44,090 nucleotides of DNA from a virus. Lineage: Duplodnaviria; Heunggongvirae; Uroviricota; Caudoviricetes. Below, in pieces: positions 3,464 through 20,895 of the stretch. How positions within the stretch are numbered: position 1 is the stretch's first letter; every line of letters begins with the position of its first letter. The stretch lies in the IMG/VR virus record IMGVR_UViG_3300045988_048025; one strand, given 5' to 3'. Made by a program: the position numbers and the translations under genes. The notes under the pieces are model-generated. The model worked only from the letters and a program-made list of their open reading frames with translations. It made no database searches and was not told the DNA's origin.

Positions 3464-5356
3464 ATGCTATTAACTTTAGCACCACAGGGTTTAACTATGA
3501 GCTTACTTACATCACTCATCAGCCATCAGATATGGCTGCAACGCACCGCATCCGGTGAGGTGAAAGACCTCGCACCGTTCATTAAGGAGATGCGGGATGA
3601 AATAAAACGGCAGGTGCTGTTATTCGGTGATGACGGGCGGAGCACTGCGCGACTGAATAAACTGTTACTCGACCTTGAAGAAGCGCTAACCGGACTTACC
3701 GGCGATTGGCAAACAAAGCTGACAGAAGACCTTAAGGAACTGGCGGCATACGAGGCTGAGTGGAACGTAAAGACACTAACCGCCAACGTTAACGCGGAAT
3801 TTGTTACGCCTACCGCCGAACAGGTGTGGGCCGCCGCCGATTTTCAGCCATTATCGTTAAACGACAAGCCTGTTGACTTCACTAAATTGATGTCTGGTTG
3901 GGGTGAAACCGAAGTCGCCCGCCTCGTAACTGGAGTTAAGATGGGCTTTGTACAAGGTCAAACCACACGGCAGATTGTTAAGAATGTCGTAGGCTCTGGT
4001 GGGCTGGCCGACATCTCAGAACGTAACGCGGCTACAGTAATCCGCACCGCGCTGTCTCATGTATCCAACGAAGCCCGTAACGAGACGTACCGCCAGAACG
4101 ACGACATCATCGAGAAATACGAGTGGGTATCAACGCTGGACAGCCGTACCAGTACGATTTGCAGAGCCAGAGACAGGATGACGTGGGAAATCGGTAAAGG
4201 GCCGATGCCTCCGGCCCATCATAATTGCTTACTTGGGGATACTGTAGTATCTACCGGTAGTCCGGTTTCTAACATTTTTAAACGGGCGTACAAAGGCACT
4301 ATAGTCTATGTCTCTACAAGGTCCGGTCGCACCTTGTCTATCACCCCAAACCACCAGGTATTGACTACCAATGGTTGGGTTGCTTCCGGCCTTCTCAATG
4401 TAGGCGACAAGCTCGTGTGCGCTAAGGACTCTGCGCTCTCTCTCAAGCATAAGGAACACAACGTTGTAGCCAAGTTCTCCGATTTGTTTAGTGCGGCTAA
4501 TGTAGCGGTCAATCCTGCGGCGGTCCGTACAAGCCCAACCACCACCGAAGACTTCCACGGCGACGGAACCGACGGCGAAGTCGAGATTGTACTTGTCAAC
4601 CGCCTTTCCTGGGATAAAGTCAAGTCCGGACTGAATAAGCAAATCATTGACAAGGAACTCCCAGTGGCTTCCCGCATTTATGACTCCCTCTCTGGCTTTG
4701 GCTCTGCGAAGCAGTTCAGCATGGTCGGCCTTTCTCCCTCGGACAGCTTCATGCGCCGCGGCGGAGAGAGCGAGGCGCTCCTCGGGAGTAGCTTTAGCCA
4801 TTCTGATAAACATAGCGTCGCTGACACCGCGAATACTAACGCCGTTCTCTCTGAGAACGCGTATGACTGGGTTACACGAAACGCCGATAATCTTTCCGAT
4901 TTCAACTGGTCCGATGCCGTCGGTATAGAGCTTGATGATGTTGTCGATTTGGTCTTTAGTGAAGCTGATTTTTGCGGGCATGTTTATAACCTCGAAAATG
5001 AACAGAACTGGTATCTCGCAAATGGAATTATAGCACATAATTGTCGCTCAACAACCGCGCCAGTAATCAGTTCTGAGTTCGACTTCCTCGATAAAGGCGC
5101 AAAACGCGCGGCTAAGGGTGCGGACGGTGGTATGCAGGTAAGTGCAGACACCACCTATTATGAGTTCCTCAAACAACAACCTGCGTGGTTTCAGGACCAG
5201 GCGCTCGGCCCTGTTCGCGGTAAGATTTTCCGTAACAGCGGTATATCACCGGAAGAGTTTCGCGTAATATCTGTAGATGGTTTCGGGAATCCGCTCACGC
5301 TTAAGCAGATGGCGGAACTCGATAAACGTGTTGCTGATTATCTGAAAGGGGATTAA
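3464..5356 (+). CDS. Head morphogenesis protein (phage Mu F-like / SPP1 gp7-like) interrupted in frame by an intein-like element
   Basis: EWVSTLDSRTSTICRARD...PPAHHN then, after the insert, CRSTTAPV, which resembles the conserved H-x-N-C-R region of Mu F-like proteins; located after the portal. Alternative start ATG 3497. Confidence 0.75.
   Translation: MLLTLAPQGLTMSLLTSLISHQIWLQRTASGEVKDLAPFIKEMRDEIKRQVLLFGDDGRSTARLNKLLLDLEEALTGLTGDWQTKLTEDLKELAAYEAEWNVKTLTANVNAEFVTPTAEQVWAAADFQPLSLNDKPVDFTKLMSGWGETEVARLVTGVKMGFVQGQTTRQIVKNVVGSGGLADISERNAATVIRTALSHVSNEARNETYRQNDDIIEKYEWVSTLDSRTSTICRARDRMTWEIGKGPMPPAHHNCLLGDTVVSTGSPVSNIFKRAYKGTIVYVSTRSGRTLSITPNHQVLTTNGWVASGLLNVGDKLVCAKDSALSLKHKEHNVVAKFSDLFSAANVAVNPAAVRTSPTTTEDFHGDGTDGEVEIVLVNRLSWDKVKSGLNKQIIDKELPVASRIYDSLSGFGSAKQFSMVGLSPSDSFMRRGGESEALLGSSFSHSDKHSVADTANTNAVLSENAYDWVTRNADNLSDFNWSDAVGIELDDVVDLVFSEADFCGHVYNLENEQNWYLANGIIAHNCRSTTAPVISSEFDFLDKGAKRAAKGADGGMQVSADTTYYEFLKQQPAWFQDQALGPVRGKIFRNSGISPEEFRVISVDGFGNPLTLKQMAELDKRVADYLKGD
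4226..5041 (+). mobile_element. Intein-like in-frame insertion (272 codons)
   Basis: Begins with Cys (CLLGDTVVSTG, block A-like), contains ITPNHQVLTTNGW (block B-like TxxH), ends VYNLENEQNWYLANGIIAHN (block F/G-like, terminal HN) followed by +1 Cys; excision would restore HHN-CRST. Confidence 0.75.
4229..4981 (-). CDS. Antisense ORF nested in the intein: putative HTH plus PD-(D/E)xK (Vsr/DUF559-like) nuclease, candidate homing endonuclease
   Basis: ATG at 4981 with GAGG 8 nt upstream; HTH-like IDNIIKLYTDGIGPVEIGKIIGVSCNPVIRVLRENG; nuclease-like core YNLDFAVGSVAVEVFGGGW...DRRRIDRYISRTKQIGELGYNVVFL; protein-like composition while the sense strand here is Ser-rich linker. Track ORF is 4229..5038. 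Confidence 0.4.
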   Translation of the reverse strand: MPAKISFTKDQIDNIIKLYTDGIGPVEIGKIIGVSCNPVIRVLRENGVSIRGVSDAMFIRMAKATPEERLALSAAAHEAVRGRKADHAELLRRAKAREGVINAGSHWEFLVNDLLIQSGLDFIPGKAVDKYNLDFAVGSVAVEVFGGGWACTDRRRIDRYISRTKQIGELGYNVVFLMLERERRVLSAHELVAYIEKAGSNPTIGSQYLVVWGDRQGATGPCRDIDYSAFVRPFKNVRNRTTGRYYSIPK

Positions 5357-5820: not shown

Positions 5821-5840
5821 AAGGCCCCTTACGGGGCCTT
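5821..5840. terminator. Hairpin terminator between convergent genes
   Basis: aaggcccc-ttac-ggggcctt, between the + gene ending at 5817 and the - gene ending at 5845. Confidence 0.55.
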
Positions 5841-5844
5841 AGTT

Positions 5845-6096
5845 TCAATACCCAGTCTCTTGGGTTAAGTTAATCTCTTTATTCCAGACGTTTTGGTTAT
5901 ACTTTTCACGAATCTGGCGCATACTTCTACCGAGCGCGGCGGATAGAGACATATCCCCGTCTTCTTGCGCGTCCAGTTGCATCTGCTGAAGCTCAATATA
6001 CGCCGAAATATCGCCGCGTAATTCAGCCTGTTCATACTCTTTTTTAAGAAAGGAACCAAGGTCCTGTACACGATGTTTTGCTGGTTTCGTAATCAT
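5845..6096 (-). CDS. Hypothetical protein (83 aa)
   Basis: ORF on the - strand with its own upstream promoter motif; no recognisable domain. Confidence 0.5.
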   Translation of the reverse strand: MITKPAKHRVQDLGSFLKKEYEQAELRGDISAYIELQQMQLDAQEDGDMSLSAALGRSMRQIREKYNQNVWNKEINLTQETGY

Positions 6097-6125
6097 TTCT
6101 TCTCGCCTCTTGTTGGTGTGAGTGA

Positions 6126-6154
6126 ATAGTACCCTATTATATTGGTGTCTGCAA
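6126..6154 (-). promoter_or_regulatory. Sigma70-like promoter for 5845..6096 (-35 TTGCAG, 17-bp spacer, -10 TACTAT) overlapping a 16-bp operator-like motif
   Basis: Read on the - strand: TTGCAG-acaccaatataataggg-TACTAT, then leader tcactcACACCAACAA. Confidence 0.4.
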
Positions 6155-6220
6155 ACTATTTGTTTACGTATTCCAGTTATTCTTCGTAATTGTAAATGTT
6201 AGAATAAACTATTCGAATAG

Positions 6221-11755: not shown

Positions 11756-12168
11756 TGGGCTACTTTGAGGACTTAACCAAAGCATTTGATGTGCCGCTGG
11801 TAGCCTTCGGAACCGCCAACGGCATCAAAGTCGCGCTTGAAAACATCGACGCGCCGACGTCAACCGATACACCGTATCTGGCGAGTTACATGTTACTTGC
11901 GGATACAGAACAGGCAGATTTGTTCTTCACAGAACAACGCTCAGGTGTTTATCAGGTCGACATTAACTACGCATCGGTGAAAGGTAGCGCGCCAATCAAT
12001 AAAATGGCAGACTTACTTAACACGGCGTTTAAAGCAGGTAAGTCATTTTCGCGTAACGACATCTGCGCCGAGGTTCAATCGGTTAGCCTGGGGCCGCTGA
12101 TTGTAGAAAACGGATGGGCCAAACGACCATTGTCAATTAACTTTATTGCATTCACCAAGAGGCTGTGA
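11752..12168 (+). CDS. Tail terminator / tail completion protein (putative)
   Basis: Position immediately upstream of the major tail gene; overlapping starts and stops. Confidence 0.4.
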   Translation: MMGYFEDLTKAFDVPLVAFGTANGIKVALENIDAPTSTDTPYLASYMLLADTEQADLFFTEQRSGVYQVDINYASVKGSAPINKMADLLNTAFKAGKSFSRNDICAEVQSVSLGPLIVENGWAKRPLSINFIAFTKRL

Positions 12169-13337
12169 ATATGGCTACAACTCCTTTTAAGGGCGCGAAT
12201 ACCGCGCAATTCTATGTGGCGGAAGTGACCCCTGGCGTAACACCGACTAACCCGGTCTGGTCGCCGTTGCGTAACACTGGCGGTGTTCCTGCGGTAACCC
12301 GCGATGCGCTGACTTCCAACGAACTCGACGGCAGCAGAGAAACCACATCCATCCGCACCGGTAACAAACAGGTTAGCGGGGAGTACGCCATCGAACTTAG
12401 CTCACGTAGCCAGGATGATTTCCTTGCGGGTGCTATGACTTCTACGTGGCAGGACGGGGTAGAGATTACGGGTGCTGAAATTACGGTCGCTCCAGCAGGT
12501 AAAACATTCACCCGCGCTGCCGGTAGCTTCATTACTGACGGTGTAGAGGTTGGCGACCTGATTGCATTCACCGACTTAACCGGCGACAACGCAAAACCGT
12601 TTATCGTGACCGCGGTTTCTGCTCTTGTAGTTACGGGTGCGGGTATCCAGCACACGCTGACAGCAGAGACTGTAACCACCGACGCTAAAACAGGCGATAA
12701 ATTGGAAACCGGTAACGCATGTAAGACGTTCTCCATCCTGACATGGTTCAAAGGACAGTGCAGGAACCATGACGCGTACATGCTGACCAAAGGCGTGGAA
12801 ATCTCCGGTTTCACCATTGAACAGGCCGTAAACGCGATGGTGACAGGCAGCTTCCCGTTCATCGGTCTGAGTCAGGAAATTCTTTCTGCACTGCCAGCAG
12901 GTTCTGATTTCTCTCAGGTGACGTTTACCGATGAGCCGTTCTCATCCGTAGATGTGTCTGTGTTCGACGGTTCTACGCCGTTGCGTTGCGATACTCTGAC
13001 CATCACCAACGACAACGGTGCTTCCGCGCAGTTCGAACTCGGCAACAGTAGTGTTGCGTTCGTGGAACGTGGCCGCGCAGCTAACACATTCTCCATCTCT
13101 GGTAAGCTGTACGACATGGCGATGATTCAGAAGTTTATCAACGAACAGCAGGTAGAGATTAACTCTATTCTGGCGGGGGTAAACGGGGCTATGTCTTTCA
13201 GCCTGAAACGCGCAGAGCTTACGGCGGTTACGCCAGAAATATCTGGCCCGGAATCAATTACGCAAAGCATAGAAGGACAGTCCACAGGCAATCAATATCA
13301 ATCTTCTATTGTAATACAGCGTATTAGCTACGCGTAA
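12165..13337 (+). CDS. Major tail (tube) protein (putative)
   Basis: 390-aa ORF upstream of the chaperone and tape measure genes; followed by a strong terminator. Confidence 0.55.
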   Translation: MNMATTPFKGANTAQFYVAEVTPGVTPTNPVWSPLRNTGGVPAVTRDALTSNELDGSRETTSIRTGNKQVSGEYAIELSSRSQDDFLAGAMTSTWQDGVEITGAEITVAPAGKTFTRAAGSFITDGVEVGDLIAFTDLTGDNAKPFIVTAVSALVVTGAGIQHTLTAETVTTDAKTGDKLETGNACKTFSILTWFKGQCRNHDAYMLTKGVEISGFTIEQAVNAMVTGSFPFIGLSQEILSALPAGSDFSQVTFTDEPFSSVDVSVFDGSTPLRCDTLTITNDNGASAQFELGNSSVAFVERGRAANTFSISGKLYDMAMIQKFINEQQVEINSILAGVNGAMSFSLKRAELTAVTPEISGPESITQSIEGQSTGNQYQSSIVIQRISYA

Positions 13338-13341
13338 GGAA

Positions 13342-13361
13342 AAGGCCCCGAAAGGGGCCTT
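13342..13361. terminator. Hairpin terminator between the major tail gene and the convergent HNH gene
   Basis: aaggcccc-gaaa-ggggcctt. Confidence 0.6.
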
Positions 13362-13362
13362 A

Positions 13363-13857
13363 CTATTTACCGTGGTTCTCGTGGAACCCTAAATCTCTTT
13401 CAGCAACTCTCCTCGCGGCAACTGCATCTAGTAGCGTTTTAAAGCACCCGATGTGTGTTTTTACGTTATTGTTGAATATCTGTGCGTACCACAACCTTTC
13501 TTTCGCGTTCCAGTAAACCCCGGTTACTCCTGATTTATTATTACGCTGTTTTGACATATTTTTATGGTTTTCCGCATTGGACTTTTTAGCTAAGTTAAGC
13601 GGTCTATTGTTTATTCGGTCATGGTCTAGATGGCCTATTTGATCTGACGAGGTTAGCTTATCGTTAGGATTGTTTAAGTCCCAAGCTATACGGTGCGCCG
13701 CGTGCCATTTACCTCGGAAAAATATCCTTCTATATCCGTCTCGCTGGACAGTACCCGCTTCCTCTCCAGCCTTAGCCCTCCCGGACCGGGTTACTCTGTT
13801 AAATATCCTTCCTGAAATTAAGTCGTATATGAAAAATTCATTCCAGTCCATAATCAT
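13363..13857 (-). CDS. HNH homing endonuclease with AP2 DNA-binding domain
   Basis: HNH region GYRRIFFRGKWHAAHRIAWDL...IGHLDHDRINNRPLNL...NHKN; AP2-like SGVTGVYWNAKERLWYAQIFNNNVKTHIGCFKTLLDA. Confidence 0.7.
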   Translation of the reverse strand: MIMDWNEFFIYDLISGRIFNRVTRSGRAKAGEEAGTVQRDGYRRIFFRGKWHAAHRIAWDLNNPNDKLTSSDQIGHLDHDRINNRPLNLAKKSNAENHKNMSKQRNNKSGVTGVYWNAKERLWYAQIFNNNVKTHIGCFKTLLDAVAARRVAERDLGFHENHGK

Positions 13858-13893
13858 CTCCTGTTGCGATAAGACCCCTTTCGGGGCCTTTTC

Positions 13894-14124
13894 TTACTCA
13901 TCAATGTTACCCCTGTACTCCCGTAACTTCTCCAGGCTTTCAATTGCTTCCGCTAAGTCTGTTCCTGTGTCTTTGTGTCCGCGAAGGCCCATACACAATA
14001 GCTTCTTCAATGCGTGCTGTAACGCTGGGTCCCGTATGTCGAAGGCGCGTAGCACGTCGTAAACGTCAACCGTCATAGTGCTGCCGTGAATGTTTGTCAT
14101 TGTGCGGTTGTATTTATTTGTCAC
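13894..14124 (-). CDS. Hypothetical protein
   Basis: ORF in the inverted island; no domain recognised. Confidence 0.4.
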   Translation of the reverse strand: MTNKYNRTMTNIHGSTMTVDVYDVLRAFDIRDPALQHALKKLLCMGLRGHKDTGTDLAEAIESLEKLREYRGNIDE

Positions 14125-14314
14125 TGTTAACTCTCTTAAATCGGGCTATGCCTGACTCGTTAATGTTGCCTATTTCAAAGAAGCTGCGATATTTAGGCGA
14201 ATACATTCTTACGTCGCCGTTCTCTAGGGTGACCCCTTCATATACCGCACCTACTTCGAATCCATTTTTCTCCGCGTACGGACTCACATCGGTACATTCA
14301 TACATATCTTTCAT
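14114..14314 (-). CDS. Hypothetical protein
   Basis: ORF in the inverted island; overlaps neighbours at start and stop. Confidence 0.4.
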   Translation of the reverse strand: MKDMYECTDVSPYAEKNGFEVGAVYEGVTLENGDVRMYSPKYRSFFEIGNINESGIARFKRVNSDK

Positions 14315-15441
14315 CCCAGCATCTCCGGTGAAATAGTTAAACGTGCGACCTCGCCATATTCGGCGCTATAAGTAATTACATTTGCACTACGGCCCGACAT
14401 CCATCCGCCGCGCGAGGCGTAGGCGTCTTTAGCCGCTAAGGTGCGGTGTTGCTCAACAATCATGTTACGGCTTTCTACAATCTTCTGGTGGTGCAGATGG
14501 CCTACGTGGGCGTAGCTGTAAACACTCTCGCCGAACGCTTTACGGAACTTGGCAATCATTACCGGTTCGATAGCGTCGAATCGCGCCTTATGCCCGTGGT
14601 GAAAGAACAGCGTAGTTTTGCCGTGTTGGACCATCTTGTAAACATCCGGCGACGTATCGACGAACACACGCGGCTCATTGTCGTACAGCGTACTAAACAT
14701 CTCAGCTAACCAAATCATTCCGCTTTCGTCGTGGTTCCCTTGCACGATAAGCAAGCGAACAGATTTATGCTTAACCAGCGCCATGTCAACAACACGGCGT
14801 ACCATACGAATCATGTATCGGACCAGTTTCTGATAACGAGTGTCCGCATCAAGAACATGACCACTCGCTGGCGTAACCGCATCCAGACTATCGAAGTGCG
14901 CGAAGTCACCCAGCAGGTTAATAACCCCAGTTCCTGCATCTGGTGCTTTCTGAAACGCCGCATCGAACCATCGGGAGAACAGGTCTTCCGCAATCTTCAT
15001 ATCCCAGTCGTCGCCGCTCTCGTCAGCCCAGGCCAGCATACCAAGATGGAAATCAGATACCGTGTACAGATTGAGTAGTTTATCATCGCGTTTGGCTCGA
15101 GTCGCTTTAACCGGCGCAACTGGCGTAATCTCCGACTTCATTCCTTCGATCACGGCTTTCATTAACTCGACCTGACGTTCGGCGTCGGTGTCTGTCTTAA
15201 CCCATTGCAACTTAGTGTTGCCGAACTCGTCCACCAGTGACGACGTTCCTTTAATTTTGTAGCCGTCCGGGACAAGATGGCTAACGTCACGACCGTGACC
15301 TACGCCTTTCTTCGCCAGCTTCGCTTTACGGATACGAATAACTCGGTCTGAGATGCCGTATTTACGGGATATGTCGATAATCTTTGTTCCGGCGTTCAAT
15401 TCTTCCTGTAACTGTTCGTCGGTTATTTTCTTCCGGGCCAT
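14311..15441 (-). CDS. N-terminal HTH domain fused to calcineurin-like metallophosphoesterase
   Basis: HTH-like ISRKYGISDRVIRIRKAKL; phosphoesterase motifs SDFHLG, LLGDFAHFD, GNHDE, HHGH, GHLHH. Confidence 0.6.
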   Translation of the reverse strand: MARKKITDEQLQEELNAGTKIIDISRKYGISDRVIRIRKAKLAKKGVGHGRDVSHLVPDGYKIKGTSSLVDEFGNTKLQWVKTDTDAERQVELMKAVIEGMKSEITPVAPVKATRAKRDDKLLNLYTVSDFHLGMLAWADESGDDWDMKIAEDLFSRWFDAAFQKAPDAGTGVINLLGDFAHFDSLDAVTPASGHVLDADTRYQKLVRYMIRMVRRVVDMALVKHKSVRLLIVQGNHDESGMIWLAEMFSTLYDNEPRVFVDTSPDVYKMVQHGKTTLFFHHGHKARFDAIEPVMIAKFRKAFGESVYSYAHVGHLHHQKIVESRNMIVEQHRTLAAKDAYASRGGWMSGRSANVITYSAEYGEVARLTISPEMLG

Positions 15442-15479
15442 GCTTACTTCCTCGTGTTTAGGATTTGTCCTATACTAGC

Positions 15480-15671
15480 TCACTTCTCTTTGACATTCGA
15501 GTTGCAAGCCCAGATTAAAATAAATACCCACGGCAGCAGAACCCAGCCGAGAAACAGATTAGCCATGAATATCGCCAGTTTCGCTTTATGTCCGCGCATA
15601 TGGGCCACTAAAAACGGGATAAAATAAACTAAAACGATAATGATTAAGAAGAACATAGTAATACCTGTCAT
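15480..15671 (-). CDS. Small membrane protein (two predicted TM helices)
   Basis: ATG at 15671 with RBS aggagc; MTGITMFFLIIIVLVYFIPFLVAH...LFLGWVLLPWVFILIWA. Track ORF extends to 15809. Confidence 0.45.
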   Translation of the reverse strand: MTGITMFFLIIIVLVYFIPFLVAHMRGHKAKLAIFMANLFLGWVLLPWVFILIWACNSNVKEK

Positions 15672-15712
15672 GGTGTAGCTCCTGTTTGAGTTAACATTGT
15701 TGGTGTAAGTGA

Positions 15713-15741
15713 ATAGTATCCTATTATGTTGGGGTGCGCAA
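15713..15741 (-). promoter_or_regulatory. Sigma70-like promoter for the inverted island (-35 TTGCGC, 17 bp, -10 TACTAT) with operator-like motif
   Basis: Same architecture as 6126..6154 and the same leader ACACCAACAA. Confidence 0.4.
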
Positions 15742-15849
15742 GTAATGTGATAGAATAATTTTGCGCCTAGTGTCGCACACGAAAAGCGGGTGGTTCCCGT
15801 CTGGCGCATTTACCATTAACCTGTAACCTCTTAACCAAAGGATTAAAGA

Positions 15850-16266
15850 ATGAAACTTTCTGATTTTTATTACGAAGCTGAGGCAGAAAAAGGCGCCCGT
15901 ATGCCGATACCACTGAAAGACGGCACCGATTCAGGGGAGTGGCTGAACGTTGTTTCACCGGAGGCAGACGTTGCTGTTAAAGCTATGAGGGCGTTTACAC
16001 TTGCGTACCGCGCGGCATTAGGTAAATTGAAACCGCTTCGCGATAAATGCGAGGAACTGAAAGATTTCTCGGAATACAACATCAAGATGGAAGACGCCGC
16101 AACGGACCTTAACCGCCAGTTAGCGCTTGAACTGGTTAACGGTTGGAGTCTCGACGATGAATTTAATAAAGAGAACCTGAATACTCTTTTCTCACAATAT
16201 AAACGACTCGCTGAACACGTTGTTGTTTTCCACAATGAACAGCTTCACCAATTGCAGGAAAAGTAG
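15850..16266 (+). CDS. Tail assembly chaperone (G-like)
   Basis: 138-aa acidic ORF immediately upstream of the tape measure gene, with a downstream overlapping -1-frame ORF. Confidence 0.55.
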   Translation: MKLSDFYYEAEAEKGARMPIPLKDGTDSGEWLNVVSPEADVAVKAMRAFTLAYRAALGKLKPLRDKCEELKDFSEYNIKMEDAATDLNRQLALELVNGWSLDDEFNKENLNTLFSQYKRLAEHVVVFHNEQLHQLQEK

Positions 16267-16631
16267 ACGCGTTGCTCCAGTTTGCCCGTTGGAACTTCAT
16301 AACCCGCCACAAACGGCGGGAGTTTGACAGTATCGCCGACGGGCATAAAGCCGCGCTAATTGCTATGGGGGTTATGCAAGACGCGCCGGAAGCAACGCAG
16401 GACACAGGGCCGGAATGCCCCCCTGAGCTATTAACCACCTTCGAGAAGTACAGGGAAATCAAATTCACCCGCCGAGTGGACGATGATGGCATCAAGATGT
16501 ACCCGCGCGAACAGTTAAGATGGTCGGATTTAGTGGCATACAGCACCGTTTCAGGCCAGAATATAGGCATGTTCGAATCTGACATCATCATGAGCTTAGA
16601 CGCTATTTTCGAGGGTAGAAACGATGGCTGA
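16239..16631 (+). CDS. -1 frame extension of the tail assembly chaperone (GT-like frameshift product), putative
   Basis: The -1 frame opens at 16239 (after a stop at 16236..16238) and overlaps the last 9 codons of 15850..16266; candidate slip site GGAAAAG at 16257..16263; ends overlapping the tape measure start. Confidence 0.4.
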   Translation, partial: TASPIAGKVDALLQFARWNFITRHKRREFDSIADGHKAALIAMGVMQDAPEATQDTGPECPPELLTTFEKYREIKFTRRVDDDGIKMYPREQLRWSDLVAYSTVSGQNIGMFESDIIMSLDAIFEGRNDG

Positions 16632-18960
16632 TGTAGCTAGTTTAGTTGTAAAAGTATCAGAGCAAGGCGCGAAAGCTACATCAGACCGTCTTGATAACCT
16701 TTCCAAGTCTGCAAAGGTAGCCGGAGCTGCGGTAGCGGGCCTCGCTTCCATCGTCGCCGCTACCGCGTACAAGGCCGCACAGGAACTGGTAGACTCCCAA
16801 CGGCAACTGGACAAGATGTCCGCCAGCCTGAAAACACTAACCGGAAGCACGCAGGGTGCAAGACAGGCGTTAAGCATCCTGCAAGACTTCGCGCGCGACA
16901 CCCCGTATGGTCTTGAACAGGCGGTAGAGGGATTCCGTAAACTGGTGGCTCTCGGCCTTACACCGTCAGAAGAAGCGTTGCGCTCCTATGGCAACACTGC
17001 CGCTGCTATGGGTAAAGACCTTAATCAGATGATTGAGGCCGTTGCGGACGCCAGTACATTTGAATTTGAGCGCCTTAAAGAATTCGGCATCAAGGCCAAG
17101 CAAAACAAAGACGATGTTGAATTTACATTCCAGGGCACCACTACGGTAGTTAAGAAGAGCGCTGCCGACATCGAGCAATACCTGCTCAACATTGGTAACG
17201 TAAACTTCGCGGGGGCTATGGCGGACCAGGCCAACACACTTAACGGGGCCATCGCCAGTGCCAGCGATTCCTGGTCGCAGTTAAAAATGACACTGGCTAC
17301 CAGCCTTGATGTTGGTGCTCTTGCGGAACCTATCCGGTACATCGATGATTTAATCCAGGAACTTAACGCACAGGTGGCATCCGGTGAACTCGCCGCCGAG
17401 ATGCGTATGTGGGGTGACATCGCATCAGAAGTGGGCAGCGCGATAGAGATGTCGTTCGACGCGGCATTTGGTTTCGTAGGCGACGCGATAAACGGGCTGA
17501 ATGAACTTTGGGATTTTAGCAGTAAAAGTATCACCGATAGCGGTGAACAAACGGCGACAACCATCGCGGAATCAGCCGCCGATGCACTCGATTTCATAGC
17601 GGAAGAATTTACCGCGATGGAGCGATTCTTTGAAGATATGGTTAAAGGGGCACAGGACGCTGGCCGGTTGGTGAAAGCTGCCTTCACACCAGGGGAATCC
17701 GTAGACGTAGCAAAAAACATTAACTTCCAGTTAGGGATGGCACTGGATACTCAGCGTGATGTTGCGGACCTGACCCGTAAAAGTTTCCGCGAACAGGTGG
17801 AGGCTCAGCAAAATATTGTCGCGCTTAAACGCGCGGCATATGACATCGACAAAGAAGCCGCTAAGGAAGAAGGTCTTAGTAAATTTAAGGTAACCGGTAC
17901 TGGTGGCGGATCCGAAGATGATAGCGCAGGTGCAAAAGCCGCTAAGAAAGCCGCAGATGCGTTCGAGCGCCAGAAGAAAGCCGCTGAGGATTTCTACTAC
18001 CAGTCGATTCATCTCAATGATGACGTATTCCAGAAAATAGAAGCCAACCAGGAACAGCAGCTAACCAAGCTACAGGAGTTTTACGGCAATCAGCTTCTTA
18101 GCGACCAGCAATACGAGAACGCTAAAACTCAGATTATGTTGGAGGCGGACACCGCTCGCCAGGAAGAACTCGCCAAGCGGGAGAAAGAACGACAGGAGAA
18201 GAACCAGAAAGGTGAAGACTTCATGGCTCAGATTATGGGTCAGAATGCCGCAGAGCTTGAGCTTCTGGAGATTCAGGAACAACAAAAACTTGACGTTGCA
18301 GACCGATATCGCGAACAGAACCTTATTAACGAGGAGCAGTACCAGGCTGCGGTTAATGCTATAAACGACCAGTATGCCTTGAAACGTGCCAACGCTACCG
18401 GTAACGCTTTCGGAATGATGGCGGATAATATTAAATCGTCGCTTGGCGAAGCGTCTACCGCTTATAAAGCGTTTGCTATCGCCCAGGCCACCATCGCCAC
18501 ATACACATCCGCCATCGAGGCTTATAAATCTGCGTCCGCGATTCCTTTTGTTGGTTGGATACTTGGGCCGATAGCAGCAGCTACAGCGGTAGCGGCAGGT
18601 CTCGCTAACATCAGCAAGATTCGTTCGGCCCGTGAACAGGGTGGTAACTTAGCTGCCGGGCAGCTATCCACCATTGCAGAACGTAACAAGCCCGAAGTTA
18701 TTATGCCGGCAGGTGCGTCACGCGTCCGTACCGCAGAACAGATGCGCCAGATTATGGGCGAGAACGGCAACAAGTCAGGCGGTGACAGCGTGACAATCGT
18801 CAACAACACCACCGGACGAGTTGATTCCGCCGTTACAGAGCGTGACGACGAAGGGCGGTTACGTGTTATCATCAGTGAAACAGTATCGGCGGCGTTACAA
18901 GACAGCAACAGTGCAATCTCCAAGTCCCGCCGGGCTACACGAAACCAGCCGGGGTATTAA
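16624..18960 (+). CDS. Tail tape measure protein
   Basis: 778 aa, Ala/Gln/Glu-rich and largely helical, Gly/Ala-rich hydrophobic segment near the C-terminus; sits after the chaperone pair. Confidence 0.8.
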   Translation: MADVASLVVKVSEQGAKATSDRLDNLSKSAKVAGAAVAGLASIVAATAYKAAQELVDSQRQLDKMSASLKTLTGSTQGARQALSILQDFARDTPYGLEQAVEGFRKLVALGLTPSEEALRSYGNTAAAMGKDLNQMIEAVADASTFEFERLKEFGIKAKQNKDDVEFTFQGTTTVVKKSAADIEQYLLNIGNVNFAGAMADQANTLNGAIASASDSWSQLKMTLATSLDVGALAEPIRYIDDLIQELNAQVASGELAAEMRMWGDIASEVGSAIEMSFDAAFGFVGDAINGLNELWDFSSKSITDSGEQTATTIAESAADALDFIAEEFTAMERFFEDMVKGAQDAGRLVKAAFTPGESVDVAKNINFQLGMALDTQRDVADLTRKSFREQVEAQQNIVALKRAAYDIDKEAAKEEGLSKFKVTGTGGGSEDDSAGAKAAKKAADAFERQKKAAEDFYYQSIHLNDDVFQKIEANQEQQLTKLQEFYGNQLLSDQQYENAKTQIMLEADTARQEELAKREKERQEKNQKGEDFMAQIMGQNAAELELLEIQEQQKLDVADRYREQNLINEEQYQAAVNAINDQYALKRANATGNAFGMMADNIKSSLGEASTAYKAFAIAQATIATYTSAIEAYKSASAIPFVGWILGPIAAATAVAAGLANISKIRSAREQGGNLAAGQLSTIAERNKPEVIMPAGASRVRTAEQMRQIMGENGNKSGGDSVTIVNNTTGRVDSAVTERDDEGRLRVIISETVSAALQDSNSAISKSRRATRNQPGY

Positions 18961-18963
18961 CCA

Positions 18964-20376
18964 ATGAGTGATTTGAGATTCCCTATGTCCCTTCGACCAA
19001 TAGTGTCGAAGGGGTACTCCCAAACGCGAGGGAGTAATATCTGGCGTACAGAAGTTCAGGGCGGTGTGCCTCGTCAGGGGCGTGATACATACTTCGAACC
19101 GGTGCCGATTAGCGTTACCCTGGTCGTATCATCGCTCGGTCGCCAGGCTTTCTATAGCTTCCTGAACAACATAGACGGCGGTGCGTCTTCATTTACCATG
19201 CCGCACGATACGGGTTTAGGTCTCGAAGACCACCAGGTACTTATTACGTCGGACATTAGCGATAGCACAGACGACGGCAAGAACTGGGTCATTACGTTTA
19301 CGGCTACAGCAGAGCGCACAGCAATTCAGGAAGACACATGTCTTACTAAGAATCTGCCAGATTTGTATGGTTGCTACGGGGATTGTCTGGGTAGTTTCCT
19401 GAAAATATACGCGAACTATGAGACTACGTTCCCGCGCATCTGGAGCGATGAAGGGCCCGCAGGATACCCGCCGATTAACCTTCTGGCGTCCGCCCTGGCT
19501 AGCCGCATTGTGTACGACGGGCCGCAGGTTTATTACATCAATCGCAACGGAAATCTTGTGCAGTCCGCCACTAATGAATGGCCTCTTACGTTTATTGATG
19601 GTGTTGCGGTTGGGCGTGTGCCGCCGGAAAATATGGCGGAAAATATTTTGCCGGATAGCCGTGATTTTAATGGCGCAAATTGGAATCTTCGCAGTAGGAT
19701 TATAACGACGCCAAATACTGATATGTTGTTTAACGGCGTTGAGTCTTCTTCTCTTATACCTACCACGGCGACAGGGTCGCACTATATAGGAGGTGCTATA
19801 CCATTAGCACCTATTGGCACAAAATTAACATGCTCTGTCATCGCCAAAGCAAACACGGCATCGACTCTGCAAACTCTATATTTTGGCGGATCAACTGGCG
19901 TCTCAGAATTGTACGCTAATTTTGACTTGGAAGCCGGGGTCGTTTCCGCAGGAAGTGCAGAGGATAAGTTAATATATCCTCTTGGTAATGGGTGGTACTA
20001 CTGTGCCATGTCGGTAGTTATTACCGGCGATATGTCGGTAAATAGACAATTCATAATATCTCCCGCGGCGTCTCCTTCATCTACAAGACTCGCCTCATTT
20101 ACAGGGGATGGCGTCCGCGGCATTTTAGTAGCACACTCACAAGTTGAAAAGTCAGAATTCTCCACATCCCCGATAGTAACAGAAGCATCGCCGGTGGCCA
20201 GACCTACAGCAACCGCAAAAGTAGTAATGAACGGTGCAACAAGCATTGATATTACATATTCAGACGGCTCTGTGGTAAACGTTCAAGCTGTTGATGATTA
20301 CGCCGCCATCCCCCGAGCGGATTCGGCGTGGGGCAGTAAATATATTACTCGTATTGATTTTAATGTGGACGGTTAA
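18964..20376 (+). CDS. Minor tail protein (distal tail protein-like N-terminus with C-terminal extension)
   Basis: Position directly after the tape measure; 470 aa. Confidence 0.45.
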   Translation: MSDLRFPMSLRPIVSKGYSQTRGSNIWRTEVQGGVPRQGRDTYFEPVPISVTLVVSSLGRQAFYSFLNNIDGGASSFTMPHDTGLGLEDHQVLITSDISDSTDDGKNWVITFTATAERTAIQEDTCLTKNLPDLYGCYGDCLGSFLKIYANYETTFPRIWSDEGPAGYPPINLLASALASRIVYDGPQVYYINRNGNLVQSATNEWPLTFIDGVAVGRVPPENMAENILPDSRDFNGANWNLRSRIITTPNTDMLFNGVESSSLIPTTATGSHYIGGAIPLAPIGTKLTCSVIAKANTASTLQTLYFGGSTGVSELYANFDLEAGVVSAGSAEDKLIYPLGNGWYYCAMSVVITGDMSVNRQFIISPAASPSSTRLASFTGDGVRGILVAHSQVEKSEFSTSPIVTEASPVARPTATAKVVMNGATSIDITYSDGSVVNVQAVDDYAAIPRADSAWGSKYITRIDFNVDG

Positions 20377-20379
20377 TTT

Positions 20380-20895
20380 ATGAGCCAGGAATCTGTAGAA
20401 GCAGCCTACCGCCGTAAGCTGGCCTCAAATCCCGACGGCGAAATTGACTACACGACGCTGGAGATAGTACACCCGCTTCTTTCAAAGCGGTATTTGCTTG
20501 TGCGCGGAACTTCCGACCTGACGGCGACGTTAGAGACCGGAGAAGTCGTAACGTTTGAGGCTACCCCTATGGAGGCTAAAGGGGCCGCCAACAATAACGA
20601 CATGGACCAGCGGGCGTCGTTCGCATTACCTGATATTGGTAACCAGTTAGATGATGAGATGGACAGGATACCGCCTGATAATACCGTGCTACCTAAATTC
20701 ATATTCCGCCGTTTTGTTGGTACTGATTTGTCTTACCCGGCTGATGGGCCTGTTGTGTACGAGTTGCAGTCGATAAACCAGGAAAAGGGGCTATTTACCG
20801 CCGACGTTGGCGTTCCTATGTTGAACCAAAGGGCCACTGGTGAACTAATGACCCCTTCAGTAATCCCATTGTTACGGGGCGTTTTGTCCACATGA
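20380..20895 (+). CDS. Minor tail protein
   Basis: Position in the tail tip cluster; 171 aa. Confidence 0.4.
   Translation: MSQESVEAAYRRKLASNPDGEIDYTTLEIVHPLLSKRYLLVRGTSDLTATLETGEVVTFEATPMEAKGAANNNDMDQRASFALPDIGNQLDDEMDRIPPDNTVLPKFIFRRFVGTDLSYPADGPVVYELQSINQEKGLFTADVGVPMLNQRATGELMTPSVIPLLRGVLST

Follow-up and report, generated by a model that had tools for sequence, protein, structure and literature searches.

In the tail operons of siphoviruses, morons of the type described by Hendrix are independent units of promoter, gene and terminator that are present in some relatives and absent from others. Phages of the Guernseyvirinae, including KMB36, 536P11, fBC-Eco01, SETP3 and vB_SenS-Ent1, carry a multi-gene block within their tail genes that has been annotated as Imm, DNA repair exonuclease, hypothetical protein and, in some phages, HNH endonuclease, and the block is already known in the sense that it is annotated in hundreds of genomes. 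In the Drexlerviridae, a study from 2026 described a 'DNA repair exonuclease' along with the lysis cassette as a core module persistent in 508 of 522 genomes, in which the exonuclease gene is followed by a gene for an SH3 protein, by polynucleotide kinase (PNK) and deoxynucleoside monophosphate (dNMP) kinase genes or occasionally by an HNH gene (PMC13164509). The present study concerns the corresponding island in a 44,090-nucleotide stretch of viral DNA (IMG/VR virus record IMGVR_UViG_3300045988_048025; hereafter the window), where five genes at positions 13,363 to 15,741 run against the direction of the tail gene block that surrounds them. We consider it very likely that this island is a lineage-typical accessory operon of Kagunavirus and Jerseyvirus at a genuine insertion hotspot, consisting of an anchor gene for a helix-turn-helix (HTH) metallophosphoesterase (MPE) and a series of exchangeable slots.

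The island agrees with the Guernseyvirinae blocks in position, strand and gene order and differs from them only in the combination of its slots: most of them lack the HNH gene found here, about half carry a phosphatase and a kinase in place of the small proteins p66 and p76, and those of the Jerseyviruses have an Ant gene in the terminal slot. With a Hendrix-type moron it shares a predicted promoter and terminator of its own, the deviating composition of some of its genes and, at greater evolutionary distance, presence or absence among collinear relatives, but it is a multi-gene, nested and ancient unit, and its core enzyme, fixed in two genera, does not have a foreign composition. The likeness to the Drexlerviridae locus, as seen in phage T1 ST16, lies in the same HTH-MPE family and the same kinds of downstream neighbours (PNK and dNMP kinase, or HNH), whereas that module is found upstream of the lysis cassette and shares the strand of its neighbours, and the one in the window is inverted within the tail block and led by a gene for an envelope protein.

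A 5-kb query around the island (12000-17000) matched 454 phage records, of which the closest was Escherichia phage vB-Eco-KMB36, with 95.7% identity over the full length of the query. On this similarity the window is assigned to an E. coli phage of the genus Kagunavirus, Guernseyvirinae. The annotated gene order of KMB36 is that of the window (tail tube, HNH, two hypotheticals, 'DNA repair protein', 'putative immunity protein', tail assembly chaperones and tape measure), and all five island genes are present there at about 95% DNA identity. The features of the locus, in window coordinates, are the following:

12165-13337: tail tube gene (PF18906, 2.4e-35)
13342-13361: terminator hairpin T1, directly 3' of the tail tube stop codon
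13363-13857, minus strand: HNH gene, 164 aa (third codon, at 13851, the likely start), GC 0.43
13870-13893: terminator hairpin T2, lying between the p76 stop codon and the ribosome-binding site of the HNH gene
13894-14124, minus strand: p76 gene, 76 aa (phrog_2452, 1.5e-36)
14114-14314, minus strand: p66 gene, 66 aa, an orphan, GC 0.42
14311-15441, minus strand: HTH-MPE gene, 376 aa (phrog_704, 1.7e-165), GC 0.51
15480-15671, minus strand: Imm-family gene, 63 aa, first of the putative operon, GC 0.40
15713-15741, minus strand: predicted sigma-70-like island promoter (TTGCGC, 17 nt, TACTAT)
15748-15756: TG-extended TAGAAT -10 element, 5' of the int-alpA-like leader
15760-15824, plus strand: int-alpA-like RNA leader (Rfam RF02996), the right-hand boundary outside the island
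15850-16266, plus strand: tail assembly chaperone gene (PF08748 and PF23812)

An earlier note on this DNA, made by a model from the letters alone, had placed five opposite-strand genes between the tail genes, and all five were recovered as minus-strand open reading frames (ORFs) at these coordinates, flanked by the tube and chaperone genes. The four small ORFs have ratios of nonsynonymous to synonymous polymorphism (pN/pS) of 0.06-0.21 among relatives (HNH, p76, p66 and Imm), and are therefore genes under purifying selection rather than chance ORFs; p76 and p66, the two small hypotheticals of the earlier note, have values of 0.12 each. GC skew is negative across the island (13.5-15.5 kb).

An unbiased census of the tube/chaperone junction was obtained from IMG/VR loci (given L numbers below) that were retrieved with the tail tube protein alone and onto which reference proteins were mapped; 33 of them combine a tube protein at least 87% identical to that of the window with a visible chaperone gene. 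MPE lies between the tube and chaperone genes in all 33 of these loci. A second, overlapping sample, retrieved with MPE and unable to test its absence, has MPE between chaperone and tube in all 43 Guernseyvirinae-type loci, and in the Jerseyvirus phages SETP3 and Ent1 Imm, MPE and p76 occupy the same place. MPE is absent from each of the 21 loci with 66-80% tube identity. These distant relatives have the same tail module with a junction that is empty or filled otherwise, in agreement with the hotspot that had been suspected. Empty spacers measure 95 nt (L130, L131) or 150 nt (L129), the spacer of L115 contains Imm alone, those of L113, L114, L116, L132 and L142 hold a 66-aa gene with a single transmembrane (TM) segment, and lipoprotein or secreted-protein genes with small ORFs are found in L118-L120, L134 and L136. 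The spacer of Cornellvirus FSL SP-031 holds one unrelated 120-aa signal-peptide protein. The presence of MPE in 33/33 close loci and in SETP3 and Ent1, together with its absence from 21/21 distant ones, therefore indicates a true hotspot with an MPE-centred operon ancestral to the two genera. Viewed as moron-like presence or absence among collinear relatives, the contrast of 33/33 at 87% tube identity or more with 0/21 at 66-80% implies that the polymorphism is ancient. The earlier note had named retention of the genes in one position as evidence that would speak against an insertion, and for the core such retention is largely what was found in Kagunavirus and Jerseyvirus.

These distributions lead us to propose the following organisation, in which the biochemical functions and the structure of the transcript are predictions from sequence. 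The island, flanked by the tail tube terminator on one side and the chaperone/tape-measure transcript's leader on the other, would be transcribed leftward from its own host-type promoter. Its leader slot encodes a small predicted envelope protein, here a two-TM protein of the Imm family that, by analogy with that family, most likely blocks DNA entry of superinfecting phages. The anchor is the HTH-MPE, a putative DNA nuclease for host-DNA salvage or end processing, which persists in T1-like phages with the same optional downstream partners. The downstream slot carries p66 and p76 in the window and a polynucleotide kinase/phosphatase (PNKP)-type HAD phosphatase with a P-loop dNMP-type kinase in about half of the relatives, and a terminal cassette slot bounded by copies of the terminator hairpin holds, in this case, a putative free-standing HNH homing endonuclease as a selfish element.

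The anchor protein has the domain composition that had been read from its translation. Its AlphaFold2 (AF2) model, with a predicted local distance difference test score (pLDDT) of 91.7, shows a three-helix HTH at residues 8-44, a beta-hairpin and helix at 61-104 and, from residue 119, a metallophosphoesterase core. The active site, as predicted, is intact: 56 homologues of 32-49% identity all retain D130, H132, G178, D179, N236, H237, H282, G314 and H317, and nearly all retain H315, and the protein carries the DxH, GD, GNH(D/E), H and GHxH motifs of the binuclear metallophosphoesterase superfamily. No significant match was obtained when the sequence was compared with the PDB, either singly or as a profile. 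Identity to Mre11/SbcD and to the PolD DP1 exonuclease is only 12-18%, with a structural similarity limited to the catalytic core; in contrast to Mre11/SbcD, MPE has no adjacent Rad50/SbcC partner and no evident capping domain, and it adds the N-terminal module of HTH and beta-hairpin.

MPE belongs to a very widespread family of phage enzymes, labelled 'DNA repair exonuclease' by annotation, with homologues in 2,040 phage records (tblastn) and 4,648 clusters at 50% identity in a search of representatives. Its settings outside the Guernseyvirinae include Dhillonvirus (76% identity), where it adjoins the small terminase gene, Jedunavirus MEW1, where a PNK gene follows, and T1 ST16 (45% identity), where an HNH gene and the lysis cassette come next. 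Judged by these matches, the core of the island is a portable module shared with T1-like phages that is here inverted inside the tail block. The enzyme is probably a Mn-dependent DNA nuclease serving host-DNA degradation and nucleotide salvage or DNA end processing, as suggested by its fold and neighbours. We favour a nuclease because of the HTH, the frequent kinase and phosphatase neighbours and the precedent of a mycobacteriophage MPE that damages host DNA (PMC12287305). It can be suggested only tentatively, as a possible but doubtful extension, that MPE and its interchangeable partners (p76, or the PNKP-type phosphatase and dNMP-type kinase) serve Guernseyvirinae, Dhillonvirus and T1-like phages alike in degrading host DNA and salvaging its nucleotides, or as a counter-defence nuclease, and that a host-type promoter drives them together with a protein for superinfection exclusion.

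The first gene of the island encodes a small membrane protein with two hydrophobic segments, as anticipated, but the gene is the 63-aa ORF at 15480-15671 and not the longer, 109-aa ORF; the shorter frame has an AGGAG ribosome-binding site and the promoter falls inside the longer one. By eye from the translation, the hydrophobic stretches span approximately residues 5-23 and 32-55 and are parted by HMRGHKAK. The protein matches Pfam Imm_superinfect (PF14373) at 51.6 bits (cut-off 27.9; E 8.7e-14), as well as phrog_1039, 'immunity to superinfection' (1.4e-23). It resembles T4 Imm, of the same Pfam family, in its small size, its two hydrophobic segments and its score above the gathering cut-off, and differs in that it has 63 aa and comes from a virulent siphovirus with another injection apparatus. 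By analogy with the family, Imm probably confers superinfection exclusion by blocking the DNA entry of superinfecting phages.

Imm leads the block in 23 of the 33 loci of the tube-based sample, and the other ten contain no Imm match. Those Imm-less leaders that were examined, in the overlapping MPE-based sample, encode either a 108-aa secreted protein (phrog_14165) or a protein with one TM segment; the leader slot thus holds a predicted envelope protein wherever its occupant was identified. Published Kagunavirus RNA-seq data, which have poor time resolution, put the Imm gene and the tail genes in different temporal classes (PMC12645636), and this is weak evidence, bearing on separate regulation only.

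Downstream of MPE the content alternates between two cassettes. In the tube-based sample, p76 follows in 17/33 loci, four of which also have p66, and the other 16 carry a HAD PNKP-type phosphatase (PF25109, 1.5e-19) and a P-loop kinase (phrog_139). Between the window and L011/L133, identity is 99% until 7 nt short of the MPE stop codon and resumes at 97% from T1, with unrelated cargo in between. The boundaries of cargo exchange are thus the MPE stop codon and the terminator hairpin. We found p66 in 26 phage records, all of them Kagunavirus and at least 92% identical, where it adjoins or overlaps the MPE gene wherever annotated, and from this distribution it is confined to a subclade of that genus. 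The p76 protein occurs in Kagunavirus and Jerseyvirus and matches the C-terminal part of the phrog_2452 profile; its AF2 model (pLDDT 87), a beta-hairpin with three helices, had no fold match in the PDB at E<=0.001. Neither family has a match in Pfam, NCBIfam or PADLOC, nor does p66 have one in PHROGs. Two candidate relationships of p76 were rejected, one to T7 gp1.7/DUF3310 (hhalign probability 0.4%), and one to the C-terminal domain of the dNMP-type kinase of the alternative cassette, from which it might have become detached (hhalign probability 0.1%).

The terminal slot is empty in some relatives and in others contains a 52-aa ORF, an Ant gene (Jerseyvirus), a plus-strand HNH gene of another family (fFiEco03) or the HNH gene of the window. 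The Jerseyvirus Ant gene is also flanked by two hairpin copies, and the hairpin-bounded slot gathers homing endonucleases and Ant genes. The product of the window's gene had been described as an HNH-AP2 homing endonuclease. For the HNH part, the protein matches phrog_99 (1e-47) and has the DH..NN..NL residues, and its score against Pfam HNH_3 is 22.2 bits, below the cut-off of 24.8; the AP2 part found no Pfam match at E<=1. The C-terminal part looks AP2-like, and the second HNH protein of phage Ro145clw, whose C-terminal stretch is by eye visibly similar, scores 19.7 bits against an AP2 cut-off of 33.3. The cassette is present, at 96-98% identity, in only five phage records (536P11, KMB36 and Ro145 phages) versus 454 records with the flanking region, and lies at the same site where this was checked (KMB36, Ro145clw). 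The next-best protein is 44% identical and comes from a family found in 2,089 phage records. One of the 33 loci in the IMG/VR sample has the gene, in a copy that is apparently frameshifted, possibly through sequencing error. By this distribution the HNH cassette is the sole recent mobile part of the island.

Further HNH genes lie between MPE and p76 in Ent1 and Ro145clw, and the island of the latter (L084; 3277-3747, minus strand) has two different HNH genes, one in the MPE/p76 gap and one after p76. A Kagunavirus-type locus with a tube protein 97% identical to that of the window (L066/L092, IMGVR_UViG_3300045988_019953) encodes an HNH protein 98% identical to that of Salmonella phage Ent1. 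The MPE beside this Ent1-type HNH is 60% identical to that of the window, near the 55% of Ent1's own MPE, which looks like co-conversion of the flanking MPE gene during intergenus transfer of the HNH gene.

Both of the regulatory signals proposed by the earlier note have counterparts in relatives. For the promoter at 15713-15741, a -35 CTTGC and a -10 TA.TAT keep their positions in 26 distinct spacers of Kagunavirus and Jerseyvirus phages, and promoters are annotated at the same offset in SETP3 and fBC-Eco01; the island promoter matches the consensus at only 7 of 12 positions. A simple scan offered an alternative (ATCACA, 17 nt, CATAAT; 15751-15723) that overlaps the conserved region and is less conserved in Jerseyvirus than the TTGC..TA.TAT pair, and both candidates were retained.

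At the other end of the island, T1 (AAGGCCCC-GAAA-GGGGCCTT) has an 8-bp GC-rich stem of -20.4 to -22.5 kcal/mol (z -2.7 to -3.5), and on the minus strand UUUUCCUU follows the hairpin, with a weaker U-tract on the plus strand. Its homologues in Ent1, SETP3 and fBC-Eco01 carry a rho-independent terminator annotation, and T1 is probably the end of the island transcript. T2 and positions 13339-13362 form 24-nt arms that are 96% complementary, i.e. T2 is a second hairpin copy that parts the HNH gene from the other four. On the minus strand T2 has -15.6 kcal/mol and no U-tract, and on the plus strand it has a good one. Because T2 lacks a minus-strand U-tract and T1 is followed by UUUUCCUU, we infer that the transcript ends at T1 and that expression of the HNH gene probably depends on transcription running through the weak inner hairpin. 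Relatives without the HNH gene have one hairpin between the tube gene and p76, versus two in the window. Some close relatives have GAAA and others TTTC as the 4-nt loop on identical stems (L013, L017, L022, L026 and others), which suggests repeated loop inversion at the T1-type palindrome.

The right-hand boundary is marked by the only Rfam match in the whole window, to int-alpA (RF02996; 32.5 bits versus a gathering threshold of 35.8, E 0.005, full model length), directly 5' of the tail assembly chaperone gene and preceded by the TG-extended TAGAAT -10 element. An alignment of 15 distinct versions of this leader, from three genera and distant relatives including empty-site loci, has the same three helices throughout, with compensatory changes in 8 of 11 pairs and an invariant UGGUU hairpin loop. 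Paired cells amount to 90.3%, compared with 72% in shuffles and at most 54% when the structure is slid along the alignment, and 0/500 shuffles reach the observed score. A covariance model built from the 15 versions found a single copy in each of 47 Guernseyvirinae-type loci (for example L118 7497-7558, L130 6156-6225 and L008 5016-5084), always 5' of the chaperone gene and also where the spacer is empty, and no copy in Dhillonvirus, T1 or other MPE-bearing loci. Since the leader is conserved 5' of the chaperone gene, the island sits between the tube terminator and the leader. The RNA is probably the 5' leader of the chaperone/tape-measure transcript, and a role in antitermination or transcript stability is speculation.

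Several points weigh against the interpretation of the island as an MPE-anchored, lineage-typical operon with a nuclease at its core. Conservation in Jerseyvirus is drawn from the biased MPE-based sample and from record counts. The Pfam Metallophos scores of MPE fall below the cut-offs, its top Foldseek match, the cyclic-nucleotide phosphodiesterase Rv0805, is a generic match of fold, and no SbcC/Rad50-type partner adjoins the gene, its neighbours being Imm and p66 in the window and, in other loci, genes for phosphatase, kinase, SH3 or HNH proteins. Promoter and terminator alike are predictions at the level of the consensus, neither of which was listed by a simple scan, and p76 and p66 lack detectable homology to anything of known function. 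The inverted relation of T1 and T2, considered as a clue to how the cassette arrived, was dropped, as the orientation of the loop flips between close relatives.

The Foldseek ranking bears on another view of MPE, as a counter-defence enzyme that hydrolyses cyclic-nucleotide immune signals (of the CBASS, Pycsar or Thoeris type) or 2',3'-cyclic phosphate ends and that, with the PNKP-type phosphatase and kinase of relatives, would form a nucleic-acid end-healing module. We regard this as improbable. Rv0805 does rank first, MPE is repeatedly linked with a HAD PNKP-type phosphatase (in Kagunavirus, Jedunavirus MEW1, L071 and Drexlerviridae) and 2',3'-cyclic phosphates are substrates for metallophosphoesterase domains in CthPnkp and lambda phosphatase (PMC2190708), but an enzyme degrading signals would not require an N-terminal HTH of the DNA-binding type, and an RNA ligase gene is not nearby. 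Kagunavirus phages are, moreover, reported to be broadly sensitive to tested defence systems (PMC11990801).

That the whole block of five genes is one recent moron or mobile island in the tail operon, with host-takeover or anti-defence cargo, is in our judgement very unlikely. The opposite strand and the promoter and terminator of its own would fit such an event, as would the empty or differently filled sites of distant relatives and the PHROGs class of the Imm family ('moron, auxiliary metabolic gene and host takeover'). Composition agrees with it in part, in that Imm, p66 and HNH have a low GC content (0.40-0.43), whereas MPE, at 0.51 versus 0.506 for the whole window, has that of the genome. 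The distributions of the genes are very different, with MPE universal and fixed at the site across two genera, p76 in about half of the relatives, p66 in 26 records and HNH in five; they did not arrive together, and the census contradicts the block as a unit. None of the five genes has a match in PADLOC or NCBIfam, and there were no other defence-related matches. Of the earlier proposal of a moron or mobile insertion, the non-structural nature of the genes, their standing as a separate unit on the opposite strand, the hotspot and the mobility of the HNH cassette (five records, next-best protein 44%) are supported, and the arrival of five genes as one insertion, given MPE in 33/33 loci, is not. 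A role of the island genes in tail assembly or the virion, for which only their position between the tube and chaperone genes, conserved in two genera, can be cited, is extremely improbable, since none of the five has structural-protein similarity (Pfam, PHROGs), as expected for cargo outside the virion module, they lie on the opposite strand with signals of their own, the spacer is empty (95 nt) in relatives that share the tube and chaperone genes, and the same MPE adjoins lysis or terminase genes in Drexlerviridae and Dhillonvirus.

As an MPE-anchored operon with exchangeable slots, the island shows cleanly, in a natural setting, how modules are nested at a hotspot in a tail operon. For phage engineering, the locus represents a natural site that tolerates the insertion of cargo.

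Other apparent insertions or extensions were noticed in the structural genes of the window. The minor head (Mu F-like) protein (630 aa, 3464-5356, plus strand) appears to contain an intein, with intein-like ends CLLGDT... and ...IIAHN/C, and a 269-aa ORF without a PHROG match lies on the opposite strand (4229-5038, minus) inside the putative intein segment. Positions 4155-5051 have no DNA similarity to KMB36, though an intein is annotated in the same protein of that phage. In the head gene block, a small reverse ORF (5845-6096, minus strand; 83 aa) belongs to no PHROG family and lies in a low-GC segment (0.43). The surrounding segment (5840-6169) is absent from KMB36 and resembles a further small insertion, again inverted, among the structural genes. 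The product of the gene that follows the tape measure gene (18964-20376, plus strand) has 470 aa, compared with 166 aa in KMB36, and approximately 930 nt of extra sequence (19446-20380) are without a KMB36 counterpart, which suggests a distal tail protein with a C-terminal extension.

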